DNA of 64,000 bases. Origin: an uncultured Candidatus Saccharibacteria bacterium (GTDB lineage Bacteria; Patescibacteriota; Minisyncoccia; Phycocordibacterales; UBA9973). Each line of letters starts with the position of its first letter. Within the stretch, counting starts at the first letter, position 1. Shown here in pieces: positions 12,557-14,250 of this stretch. The position numbers were made by a program, and so were the translations under genes. The stretch is taken from contig CAZGNC010000003.1 in the NCBI GenBank assembly GCA_964527235.1, positions 47,809 to 111,808 on the forward strand, read 5' to 3'. The notes beneath the pieces are model-generated. The model was not told the origin of the DNA. It was given only the letters and a program-made list of their open reading frames with translations, and searched no databases.

Positions 12557-12685
12557 TTTTAACTCCAGACCTTTCTCTGGCGTCAGATTCTTTTTAGGAT
12601 ATGAAATCATTATCCATTGTGTCGTCAATTGAGCGACACAACACCGACTCACTAGACTACAATCTTCCGAAGAAGATCGTAGCGT

Positions 12686-14250
12686 TTTTCAAATTGAATT
12701 AATCCACGAGCAGCTTCCGCTACCCGTGCCTTGTTACGACTTAGTCCCTGTCACCGAGCTTACCTTAGGCCCTACTTATGTAGAGACTTCGGGTACTCCC
12801 GGCTCCCTTGACTTGACGGGCGGTGAGTACAAGACTTGAGAACGTATTCACCGCGGTATAGCTGACCCGCGATTACTAGCAATTCCAACTTCATGGGGTC
12901 GAGTTGCAGCCCCCAATCTGAACTGGGGCGACTTTTCTTACGATTAGCTCAGAGTTACCTCGTCGCAACGCGTTGTAGTCGCCATTGTATTATGTGTGTG
13001 GCCCCGGATATCAAAGGGACATGCTGACCTGGCGTCATCCTCGCCTTCCTCCCCGTATATTATGTCCAAATTTTTTAAAACTTGGGCACACTATACGGGG
13101 CAGTCTCGCCTGACAAATATAACAGGCAACAAGGGTTGCGTTCGTTACCCCACTTAAGGGAACAATTCAAACCACGAACTGACGACGGCCATGCATCACC
13201 TGCCTAACTGCCCTTGCGAGCTACTTAAGTTTCCTAAAGTATTCAGTTAGGTTTCAAACCCGGGTAAGGTTTTTCGTTTACCATCGAATTAAACCACATA
13301 ATCCACTGCTTGTGCAAGTCCCCGTCTATTCCTTTGAGTTTTAGCCTTGCGGCCGTACTACCCAGGCGGATCGCTTAACGCGTTAGCTTCGTCTCTTAGA
13401 GGGTCGATACTCCAAAAAACCAGCGATCATCGTTTAGGGCGTGGACTACTGGGGTATCTAATCCCATTCGCTACCCACGCTTTCGTGCTTGAGTGTCAAA
13501 TATGCGCCAGCGTACTGCCTTCGCTTTTGGTGTTCCCCATGATATCAACGGATTTCACTCCTACACCATGAGTTCCGTACGCCTCTCGCACTTTCTAGTT
13601 CTGCCGTTTCCTCCGCGGATCCATGGTTAAGCCATGGGTTTTGACAGAAGACTAACAGAACAACCTACGCACCCTTTACGCCCAATAATTCCGGATAACG
13701 CTCGAGGCTCTCGTATTACCGCTCCTGCTGGCACGAGATTAGGAGCCTCTTATTCATTAGGTAACGTCAATAAACTTCCTCCCTAATAAAAGATCTTTAC
13801 GTCCCAGAGGGACTTCATCAATCACGCGGCGTCGCTCCATCAGACTTTCGTCCATTGTGGAAGTTTCTTGACTGCAGCCACCCGTAGGTGTATGGTCCGT
13901 GTCTCAGTACCATCGGTGGGGGTCAGCCTCTCAGCTCCCCTAGACGTCATAGCCTTGGTAGGCCATTACCCTACCAACTAGCTGATATCGCACAGGCCTT
14001 TCCAAGAGCGTTAAAACTTTACTCTTACGAGACCATCTTGTATTAGTCCGGATTTCTCCGGATTATTCAAGACTCTTGGGGAAGTTCCTATGTATTACTA
14101 CCTCGTTCGCCACTAACAAGCGATCCGCATCCATACTTACTTTGACTTGATGTAATCTCATCTCTGCTTGCATTTCAGTGGGCTTGTCCGTTCGACTTGC
14201 ATGCCTTATCCACGCCGCCAGCGTTCATCCTGAGCTAGGATCAAACTCTA
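12686..14250 (-). rRNA. rrs: 16S ribosomal RNA (complete)
   Basis: The RC contains AGAGTTTGATCCTAGCTCAG at the 5' end, GTGCCAGCAGGAGCGGTAATAC in the 515 region, and GTCGTAACAAGG...GGAT at the 3' end (1492R complement CCTTGTTACGACTT at 12729-12742). GC-rich relative to flanks. Confidence 0.95.

Follow-up and report, generated by a model that had tools for sequence, protein, structure and literature searches.

The only 16S rRNA gene visible in the window, by which we mean the whole 64-kb (64,000-nucleotide) stretch of DNA analysed, has very probably lost the anti-Shine-Dalgarno (anti-SD) sequence as a lineage-wide, inherited trait, and the organism's own genes very probably start without SD:anti-SD pairing. 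Such pairing is the textbook start mechanism of bacteria, and few segments of rRNA are as conserved as the anti-SD.

The gene occupies positions 12692..14256 of the minus strand and is full length: Infernal aligned it to positions 1-1533 of the bacterial small-subunit model RF00177 and scored the match at 1359.8 bits, where the gathering score is 50. The core helices h44 and h45 are conserved, and two lineage-specific expansions are present. Helix 45 (12705..12728, minus strand), CACGGGUAGC-GGAA-GCUGCUCGUG, is intact in the Infernal alignment, and 120 species genomes carry it too. At the predicted 3' end, where the model reads GGAUcACCUCCUUu, the window reads GGAUUAAUUCAAUU, so that the tail after GGAU (12692..12701, minus strand) is UAAUUCAAUU where CACCUCCUUU is expected. 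The canonical tail GAUCACCUCCUUU, with its anti-SD core CCUCC, is not matched, the aligned tail being GAUUAAUUCAAUU. The first-pass annotation had claimed that the 16S 3' end lacks CCUCC and that helix 45 is intact; this alignment bears out both statements, and the sequence had been transcribed correctly.

The sequence CCUCC does not occur anywhere in the 16S gene or in the 250-nt trailer, which rules out an anti-SD hidden past an intervening sequence. The gene is bracketed by a 28-bp pre-16S processing stem, formed by a 5' leader arm (14262..14289) and a 3' trailer arm (12529..12556), both on the minus strand, with a duplex energy of -45.7 kcal/mol. A CACCUCG sequence at about 12470 belongs to a terminator hairpin, beyond the processing stem.

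The closest 16S relatives are Parcubacteria/Minisyncoccia MAGs, with 81-88% identity, and the best-matching MAGs are labelled Minisyncoccia, Taylorbacteria, Parcubacteria or Paceibacterota. By this 16S relatedness, which is a matter of identity and not of a tree, the window organism is a Parcubacteria (Paceibacteria/Minisyncoccia, CPR) bacterium. A tail-agnostic h45 scan of species genomes yielded 120 Parcubacteria/Paceibacteria 16S genes, among which AT-rich, non-canonical tails were seen in about 100 and the canonical CACCUCCUUU in only 13. The exact tail UAAUUCAAUU is common to at least 11 other species, and tails vary widely between related clades. The cultured Minisyncoccus archaeiphilus (L033) likewise has no anti-SD.

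The presence of one rrs within 64 kb, without a linked 23S rRNA gene, and the fragmentation that is common in CPR MAGs would fit a mis-assembled or trimmed 3' end, or a degenerate extra rrs with a canonical copy elsewhere, and the first-pass annotation had kept an atypical copy or an assembly or trimming artefact as its fallback. This explanation is largely refuted, and we regard it as highly improbable, because the full-length gene lies mid-contig with its trailer, processing stem and terminator, because Logan contig L126 (SRR14271372), an independent assembly that starts inside h45, has an identical tail and trailer, because the roughly 100 species genomes with non-canonical tails include the complete genome of the cultured strain, and because the same has been reported for a Parcubacteria subgroup (PMC9297842). 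The strain is present in runs SRR14271365/66/72.

The loss of the anti-SD in that subgroup is thus already published: about half of Parcubacteria have no CCUCCU at the 3' end of their 16S, and the authors concluded that these form no SD helix (Tsurumaki et al. 2022, RNA 28:1041; PMC9297842). A link between the loss of the anti-SD and that of the ribosomal protein uL1 was also reported (PMC9297842); the rplK-rplA region lies outside the window. The window organism, which belongs to the same phylum-level group and likewise lacks CCUCCU in its 16S, is a further member. Whereas that study gave motif detection rates only, the tail is here read base by base, its non-canonical state being common to about 100 species, and is linked to predicted leaderless starts, to covariation in a hairpin between tail and trailer, and to SD motifs in a minority of genes.

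The native genes of the window, for which Pfam confirmed the names secA, metK, secG, rnj, guaA, zwf and htrA given in the first-pass annotation, had been described there as lacking SD motifs, and this description holds. Among 39 ORFs of at least 100 aa with an ATG start, a single one, which belongs to a GC-rich cassette, has a GGAG, GAGG or AGGA 4-mer at -18..-4. The window genes showed no SD enrichment, with a mean duplex energy to the canonical anti-SD of -0.36 kcal/mol versus -0.39 kcal/mol for shuffled upstream regions. When relatives were compared by tail type over 8-kb loci, the canonical group, small at 40-45 genes, had low SD use as well (5 of 45). The regions upstream of native starts are about 80% A+T and G-poor, with A peaks at -11, -6 and -5; at -3, A and T were seen in 15 and 19 of 43 genes, respectively.

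It is scarcely credible that the tail UAAUUCAAUU serves as an alternative anti-SD for genes with a matching AU-rich upstream motif. AU-rich upstream regions always permit some pairing, and PMC10783764 describes organisms with binding and no conserved core. However, complementarity to the native tail within the 22 nt upstream of 43 genes averaged -0.83 kcal/mol; this mean is weaker than those of all 200 shuffled-decoy tails (mean -2.10) and of 99% of shuffled upstream sets. Upstream of these 43 genes, the 5-mers AATTG, ATTGA and TTGAA, which could pair with the core of the tail, do not occur at all, and the wide divergence of tails between related clades also speaks against re-coded pairing.

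Many native starts instead lie directly downstream of a promoter element. A TAnnnT -10 box ends 6-9 nt before the start codon in 14 genes, nine of which carry a TGn extension, and a near-consensus -10 box ends 5-9 nt upstream of 10 of 48 starts, as compared to 1.33 +/- 1.06 for random ATGs. On the minus strand, the extended box TGcTAATAT (10580..10585) ends 6 nt before the secA ATG, the Ddl-like gene 11568..12458 has TGtTATAAT (12467..12472) ending 8 nt ahead of its ATG, and a second TGtTATAAT (27658..27663) ends 6 nt before the msrA ATG; all three genes are predicted to be leaderless. Similar boxes lie at 4748-4753, 24419-24424, 24925-24930, 34215-34220, 38747-38752, 53985-53990, 57408-57413, 59121-59126, 59833-59838, 61843-61848 and 62995-63000. 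The remaining native genes have AU-rich or stop/start-abutting junctions.

Transcription from a -10 box that ends 6-9 nt upstream of the start codon would start at the AUG or beside it. We infer from these positions that the first genes of transcription units, with a (TGn)TAnAAT box at this distance, are mostly leaderless, and that such transcripts would be bound by the ribosome directly at their 5'-terminal start codon. For the downstream genes, the AU-rich, G-poor junctions, a few of which abut the upstream stop codon, suggest entry at unstructured sites or coupling.

The tail does not appear to have simply decayed. Tail positions 4-7, formerly CUCC and now UUCA, can pair with the first trailer bases in a mini-hairpin, UUCA-AUU-UGAA (12688..12698, minus strand). 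Pairs were counted in a custom anchored register; a MAFFT alignment of the tails, tried for the same count, introduced no gaps and left the 3' arms out of register. Of 39 unique non-canonical clade tails, 38 have an in-register stem of 3 bp or more, versus 15.2 +/- 2.7 after shuffling (maximum 24 of 1000), the supporting sequences being phylogenetically related and the hairpin itself weak, with 3-4 bp and about 0 kcal/mol in isolation by RNAfold. The pair at position 4 is U-A, C-G, G-C or A-U, and that at position 7 is A-U or C-G. In the canonical relatives, CUCC pairs with GGAG at the same place. The covariation suggests that compensatory changes at the former CUCC positions have kept a hairpin that may act in processing; selection seems to have been retained on the pre-rRNA 3'-end hairpin and lost on pairing with mRNA.

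A minority of genes does carry SD motifs. GGAGG-like motifs precede seven plus-strand ORFs, starting at 4840, 25107, 25529, 38159, 54093, 54906 and 57976, in agreement with the earlier observation of GC-rich cassettes with SD motifs at ideal spacing. An SD 5-mer precedes 6 of 8 ORFs with GC3 of at least 0.55, versus 2 of 59 others (Fisher p = 7e-6), a comparison that is partly circular, as the small ORFs were found by an SD scan. The GC content reaches 75% over 150 nt, versus a background of about 40%, and GC3 is 0.54-0.89 in the SD-bearing genes, versus about 0.25-0.48 in the native genes.

For the first unit (4829..5253, plus strand), GGGAGGGG at 4829-4836 precedes a 137-aa ORF (4840-5253; GC3 0.54) encoding a signal-peptide protein, which has its own leader and a terminator that overlaps the stop codon. 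Cassette A (25006..25387, plus strand) consists of a TTGACA-16-TAGAAT promoter (25006-25033), a leader of about 65 nt, AGGAGG (25093-25098), a 65-aa ORF with a GTG start (25107-25304; GC3 0.89) and a terminator hairpin (25361-25387). Cassette B (25429..25724, plus strand), which also occurs on the independent contig L124, repeats the promoter (25429-25456) and the terminator module (25697-25724) of cassette A, with AAGGAGG (25516-25522) before a 50-aa ORF (25529-25681; GC3 0.76) that is unrelated to the ORF of cassette A. The promoters of cassettes A and B each show 11 of 12 matches.

For the tandem pair of small GC3-rich ORFs at 37764..38415 (plus strand), the first (37764-38084) has a short leader and no SD, the second (38159-38371) is preceded by AGGTGA (38147-38152), and copies of one GC-rich terminator module lie downstream of both. 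Also on the plus strand, GGAGGA (54080-54085) precedes an 89-aa orphan gene (54093-54362; GC3 0.63; unit 54080..54362), and GGAGGAG (54897-54903) precedes a 50-aa lysine/arginine-rich ORF (54906-55058; GC3 0.76; unit 54897..55058) with a GC-rich hairpin after it. Finally, GGAGGT (57966-57971) precedes an ORF with a GTG start (57976-58548; GC3 0.62; unit 57966..58548, plus strand) for a 190-aa membrane protein, a member of a large uncharacterised family whose cluster look-up returned neither names nor taxa. A GC-rich hairpin follows each cassette ORF; a simple terminator scan made no call because the T tract is interrupted. Housekeeping genes flank the cassettes.

The seven ORFs are without annotated homologues. 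Pfam and PHROGs matched none of the cassette proteins, PF06983 being found only for the neighbouring gene 57420..57896. For the 89-aa and 137-aa products, homologue searches recovered no protein beyond the queries and one orthologue, and a profile search gave no further match. IMG/VR scans with two cassette proteins and the shared terminator motif gave no relatives, and one metagenome scan with the terminator motif gave six matches, all by chance, inside a coding gene of an organism with 60-65% GC. No match was obtained by BLAST against plasmids and phages for cassettes A and B, or against plasmids for the 190-aa protein. When the cassette A/B region was searched against Rfam with permissive settings, the sole hit was ftsZ-DE, which fell on the terminator and stayed below threshold, at 21.7 bits versus a gathering score of 72.2.

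These SD-bearing, GC3-rich small genes are autonomous promoter-leader-gene-terminator units, at least some of which are probably imports with donor-type signals that the host ribosome cannot read by base pairing. The first-pass annotation had proposed that the cassettes evolved under, or are read by, a different ribosome. The former proposal is partly supported: GC3 values of 0.76-0.89 in three cassettes fit a recent import from a high-GC, SD-using donor, but neither a donor nor a homologue was found for them, and the orthologues of 4840..5253 and 57976..58548 keep a GGAG-type motif. Because these two genes have motif-keeping orthologues, simple recent import does not explain all units. For the latter proposal, we found no evidence in support.

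Phage morons are autonomous promoter-gene-terminator insertions of deviant base composition, as Juhala et al. and Hendrix et al. reportedly described in 2000. The cassettes resemble them in being single small genes with a near-consensus promoter and a terminator, placed between unrelated genes and deviant in GC. Unlike morons, they are not part of any recognisable prophage, no relatives were found among PHROGs or in IMG/VR, and the tandem units have common promoter and terminator modules but unrelated ORFs.

The SD-like motifs might instead be functional: leadered mRNAs would depend on a purine-rich GGAGG element, kept by selection and recognised not by the 16S tail but by some different factor, for instance a ribosomal protein or a further RNA. 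The motifs in the window precede genes with long leaders and their own promoters. The syntenic orthologue of 4840..5253 on contig L121 (murD-X-murE-secA, with the gene as X) keeps CCGGGAG, and the orthologue of 57976..58548 on contig L133 has AAGGAGA, both with unchanged spacing despite 46-56% protein identity. In addition, 11 of 388 genes in anti-SD-less relatives have a GGAGG that starts at -13..-9, a sharp peak as compared to a control-window mean of 3.4 (1-6 per window), with no shift in GC3.

Nevertheless, we consider such a reading unlikely. No rRNA sequence complementary to the motifs exists, the orthologue pairs are just two, with contigs L121 and L133 read here without their 16S tails, and an ongoing influx of genes from SD-using bacteria would likewise give a correctly spaced peak. 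Moreover, the motif of the first cassette lies within a possible CCCG/CGGG stem, and RNA structure could explain its conservation. The general claim that a few leadered genes of anti-SD-less Parcubacteria keep GGAGG-type motifs at canonical spacing under selection is, on these comparisons, a little more doubtful still.

Even less probable is that the GC-rich units are structured non-coding RNAs that look like an SD with an ORF by chance. High-GC DNA carries long ORFs in more than one frame, the transcripts would have their own promoters and terminators, and the fold of cassette B is somewhat better than that of shuffles (z = -2.3). However, cassette A reaches only z = -1.4, no Rfam family was matched, and GC3 (0.76-0.89) is well above GC2 (0.46-0.60) in the SD-defined frame, which is a coding signature; the 137-aa and 190-aa products also have protein-level homologues.

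Initiation in Bacteroidia and Flavobacteriia is reportedly SD-independent, as Baez et al. are said to have found in 2019. SD-independent initiation in these classes has also been described by Jha et al. 2021 (PMC7797042). The window resembles them in that most genes lack an SD and would start in A/U-rich, unstructured regions. The Bacteroidia type also has a Kozak-like A at -3 and other positions of an A-rich, G-poor start region; in the window, A shows no peak at -3. In contrast, Bacteroidia keep a canonical anti-SD, sequestered on the 30S platform, whereas the window 16S lacks the sequence itself, and leaderless promoters are prominent in the window organism, unlike in the Bacteroidia.

In Actinobacteria and Deinococcus, the translation of leaderless mRNAs is a major mode. 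The same has been reported for haloarchaea (PMC3986360). The likeness lies in a promoter -10 element directly upstream of the start codon and in the SD being unneeded; however, those systems keep the anti-SD and use the SD on some leadered or internal genes, whereas the window organism has no anti-SD. Organisms described as anti-SD-less (2012 study; Amin et al. 2018, cited in PMC9297842) likewise have no CCUCC core and no SD:anti-SD binding signal; among the examples named are Nanoarchaeia and Flavobacteriia, and a term search of the main text returned no mention of Patescibacteria, Parcubacteria or "candidate phyla".

A whole bacterial radiation with a replaced anti-SD shows that the pairing is dispensable, and the anti-SD-less group now has a cultured member in Minisyncoccus archaeiphilus. 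In these genomes, starts will be misplaced by gene finders that use a ribosome-binding-site score, and the position of the -10 box is a better guide. Universal primers and probes differ from this 16S at its 3' end and at the 515F primer site. The hairpin that has been kept suggests that the maturation of the 16S 3' end is under a constraint which the anti-SD normally masks. The few SD-bearing genes are a natural test of an SD motif without its partner: if their GGAGG motifs were indeed under selection, they would be read by something besides the 16S 3' tail, or by a second, unseen ribosome population, and would provide a natural system that separates the function of the SD motif from SD:anti-SD pairing.

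The window contains one full-length bacterial SSU rRNA gene (12692..14256, minus strand), which scored 1359.8 bits over model positions 1-1533 with Infernal. In an Infernal run focused on the 3′ end, the model sequence GGAUcACCUCCUUu aligned with GGAUUAAUUCAAUU of the window. Helix 45 (12728-12705, minus strand) is intact, as is its GGAA loop; the ten bases 3′ of GGAU (12701-12692) read UAAUUCAAUU, and the CCUCC pentamer is absent from the whole 16S rRNA and the 250 nt 3′ of the gene, indicating that the 3′ end had been transcribed correctly in the first-pass annotation. The gene looks functional: leader and trailer of the pre-16S rRNA form a 28-bp stem (14262-14289 with 12529-12556, -45.7 kcal/mol) of the kind expected for processing by RNase III, and a terminator lies after it. 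With this stem and terminator, the 16S rRNA forms a stand-alone transcription unit (12440-14330, minus strand); no 23S or 5S rRNA gene was found within the 64-kb window, and a tRNA-Ala(GGC) gene lies at 11095-11166 (minus strand).

Relative to the bacterial model, the 16S rRNA has two insertions, of 60 nt near model positions 78-82 (window about 14122-14185, minus strand) and of 37 nt near model position 1160 (about 13054-13092, minus strand). In the 530-loop region (13716-13734, minus strand), GUGCCAGCAGGAGCGGUAA stands in place of GUGCCAGCAGCCGCGGUAA, and the upstream partner (about 13745-13755, minus strand) reads GGCUCCUAA in place of CGGCUAA. These differences look like compensatory changes in the 505-507/524-526 pseudoknot, from GGC/GCC to UCC/GGA, and they introduce two mismatches into the universal 515F primer site.

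The protein encoded at 11568..12458, just downstream of the 16S rRNA, also has a record in Logan, in an independent assembly from run SRR14271372, whose contig begins within helix 45 and has a tail and trailer identical to those of the window. A tail-agnostic scan of one genome per GTDB species, in which the pattern comprised helix 45 only up to GGAT and the tail was left unconditioned, matched at least 120 loci, nearly all in Patescibacteria/Parcubacteria MAGs; the matches listed include the cultured Minisyncoccus archaeiphilus, represented by a complete genome. CACCTCCTTT was present in only 13 of the 120 matches listed and AT-rich, non-canonical tails in about 100, and TAATTCAATT is common to the window and at least 11 of the matches listed. 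The same tail in an independent assembly and non-canonical tails in about 100 species genomes refute the earlier fallback that this 16S copy is atypical; the absence of the anti-Shine-Dalgarno (anti-SD) sequence is real and robust. The best 16S matches listed are only 81-88% identical (Minisyncoccia, Taylorbacteria, and Parcubacteria MAGs), and the window thus represents a distinct lineage within a large clade without the anti-SD. Some MAGs with a Parcubacteria-type helix 45 are titled Gammaproteobacteria, Spiroplasmataceae, Gastranaerophilales, Omnitrophota, or Saccharibacteria (loci L001, L006, L038, L057, L060, L086, L098, and L109, plus many "Candidatus Saccharibacteria" titles), and these bins are probably mislabelled or contaminated.

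Translation of the window with table 11 gave long, tightly packed ORFs, and Pfam bears out murC/D/E, secA, metK, msrA/B, secG, RNase J, htrA, guaA, zwf-gnd-pgl, pyrD, and others. Two ORFs are very large (18895-23328, 1477 aa; 28625-32740, 1371 aa; both minus strand), and AT content within the window peaks at 28000-30000 (31-32% GC). Among 39 ORFs of 100 aa or more that start with ATG, only one, a GC-rich cassette gene, has a GGAG, GAGG, or AGGA 4-mer at -18..-4, and the duplex energy with the canonical anti-SD did not differ from that of shuffled upstream regions (mean -0.36 versus -0.39 kcal/mol). These results bear out the earlier claim that the native genes lack SD motifs. Re-coding of the tail as a new anti-SD was rejected, since pairing of the native tail with the upstream regions, which are about 80% A+T and G-poor, has an energy of -0.83 kcal/mol, weaker than that of all 200 shuffled decoy tails, and no k-mers complementary to the tail core occur in these regions.

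The absence of the anti-SD together with native genes without SDs is an already published trait of Parcubacteria and is not new: Tsurumaki et al. (2022; PMC9297842) reported that only 48% of Parcubacteria have the anti-SD motif and inferred no SD helix for the rest, and PMC10783764 defines SD-scarce organisms that lack CCUCC as a general category. The relatives with the canonical tail CACCUCCUUU (L011, L022, L031, L041, L055, L058, L086, and L091) likewise have few SDs around the 16S gene (5 of 45 ORFs), hinting, from a sample far too small, that SD use may have faded ahead of the loss of the anti-SD.

A near-consensus -10 box, frequently with a TGn extension, lies immediately 5′ of the start codon in many genes: TGcTAATAT-6-ATG for secA, TGtTATAAT-6-ATG for msrA and the gene at 59133, TGtTATAAT-8-ATG at 11568, TGgTAATAT-6-GTG for msrB, and TGgTATAAT-9-ATG at 63010. 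A -10 box ending 5-9 nt upstream was seen for 10 of 48 starts, compared to 1.33 ± 1.06 (maximum 5) for random ATGs, and the total rises to 14 genes when extended -10 matches are counted. Because the usual distance from the -10 box to the transcription start is about 7 nt, the start codon would form the 5′ end of these transcripts. The 14 genes are thus predicted to be transcribed, probably, as leaderless mRNAs, with both transcription starts and initiation mode inferred from the sequence. The related contig L133 has the same pattern (TGTTATAAT-6-start). The other genes have AU-rich start junctions, and a few abut the upstream stop codon directly (...TAAATG), pointing to coupling or to entry at sites without structure.

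Where relatives have the canonical tail, it base-pairs with the beginning of the trailer (CACCUCCUUUCUAGGGAG), CUCC with GGAG. In the clade of the window, tail positions 4-7 are UUCA, UUCC, GUCA, or AUCA, and the in-register trailer is UGAA, GGAA, UGAC, or UGAU. With tail position 6 as the anchor, 38 of 39 unique, phylogenetically related non-canonical tails form a stem of 3 bp or more, compared to 15.2 ± 2.7 (maximum 24 of 1000) with the downstream bases shuffled. Both sides vary, with U-A, C-G, G-C, and A-U pairs at position 4 and A-U and C-G pairs at position 7. Given so short and weak a helix, and sequences that are related, its covariation is suggestive rather than proven. In the simplest reading, a pre-16S 3′-end hairpin would have been retained while the mRNA-pairing function was lost. 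The helix is absent in other anti-SD-less clades (CAAUUAAACU..., CAUUUAUUUU...).

Seven plus-strand ORFs, starting at 4840, 25107, 25529, 38159, 54093, 54906, and 57976, have a GGAGG-type motif 4-9 nt 5′ of the start codon, and their GC3 is 0.54-0.89, compared to about 0.25-0.48 for the native genes, in agreement with the earlier claim that GC-rich cassettes carry SDs. Their GC3 is far above GC2, which argues for real coding sequence in the SD-defined frame. They lie singly or in tandem amid housekeeping genes and are followed by GC-rich terminator hairpins; a TTGACA-type promoter and leader are recognisable at cassettes A and B, 4840, and 57976. Cassettes A and B (25006-25724, plus strand) have promoter (TTGACA-16-TAGAAT, 11/12 matches) and terminator modules in common, and their ORFs are unrelated. 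The 37764/38159 pair of unrelated small tandem ORFs has one GC-rich terminator module (GCCGCCGAGGAGCCGCCRACCGCGCTC..CCGGCGGCT) in two copies (38085-38135 and 38372-38415, plus strand), which parallels the shared modules of cassettes A and B. Adjoining this pair (37764-38415) is a gene for a deoxyhypusine synthase family protein (PF01916, E = 5e-34; 36684-37694, minus strand), here in a bacterium.

Chimeric assembly of the cassettes is ruled out by their recovery in independent assemblies, and the proposal that they are read by the ribosome of another organism found no support of any kind. The related proposal, that they evolved under a different ribosome, is only partly supported. The extreme GC3 of A, B, and 54906 is consistent with their recent acquisition from a GC-rich donor that uses SDs; no relatives of the cassettes were found in Pfam, PHROG, IMG/VR, plasmids, or phages, and a metagenome scan gave chance matches only. 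Recent import, however, does not fit all of the SD-bearing genes, as orthologues of two of them keep the motif. The 137-aa gene (4840-5253, plus strand) has a syntenic orthologue in the related contig L121, whose protein is 46-53% identical (84% for SecA) and whose leader retains GAAACCC...CCGGGAG. The 190-aa membrane protein (GTG ORF 57976-58548, plus strand) belongs to a large family, and its orthologue in L133, 56% identical and beside a near-identical tRNA-Gln, has its own promoter, leader, and AAGGAGA at equal spacing. In the window, the last 15 nt of tRNA-Gln(CTG) (55301-55315) are repeated exactly at 55362-55376 (plus strand), 47 nt downstream (0.07 expected by chance), and are followed by an AT-rich (34-38% GC) AAA_15/AAA_21 ATPase gene (ORF 55415-57232); this arrangement looks like an integration scar or a small island.

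Among 388 ORFs of anti-SD-less relatives, with rRNA masked, a GGAGG starting at -13..-9 was found in 11, compared to 1-6 (mean 3.4) per control window, and these ORFs showed no GC3 shift. Textbook SDs are present on a few genes in anti-SD-less species, such as aaaaAGGAGGatattATG in the cultured M. archaeiphilus; examples are L033 6906-7844, L010 1958-2410, and L028 1621-1914 (all minus strand).

What is new from the window is the predicted leaderless promoter architecture, the suggestive covarying tail/trailer hairpin, and a paradox, in that well-formed SD motifs occur on a minority of genes in lineages without the anti-SD: either SD-carrying genes arrive continually from SD-using bacteria, or the GGAGG motif is useful in some way independent of the 16S tail.
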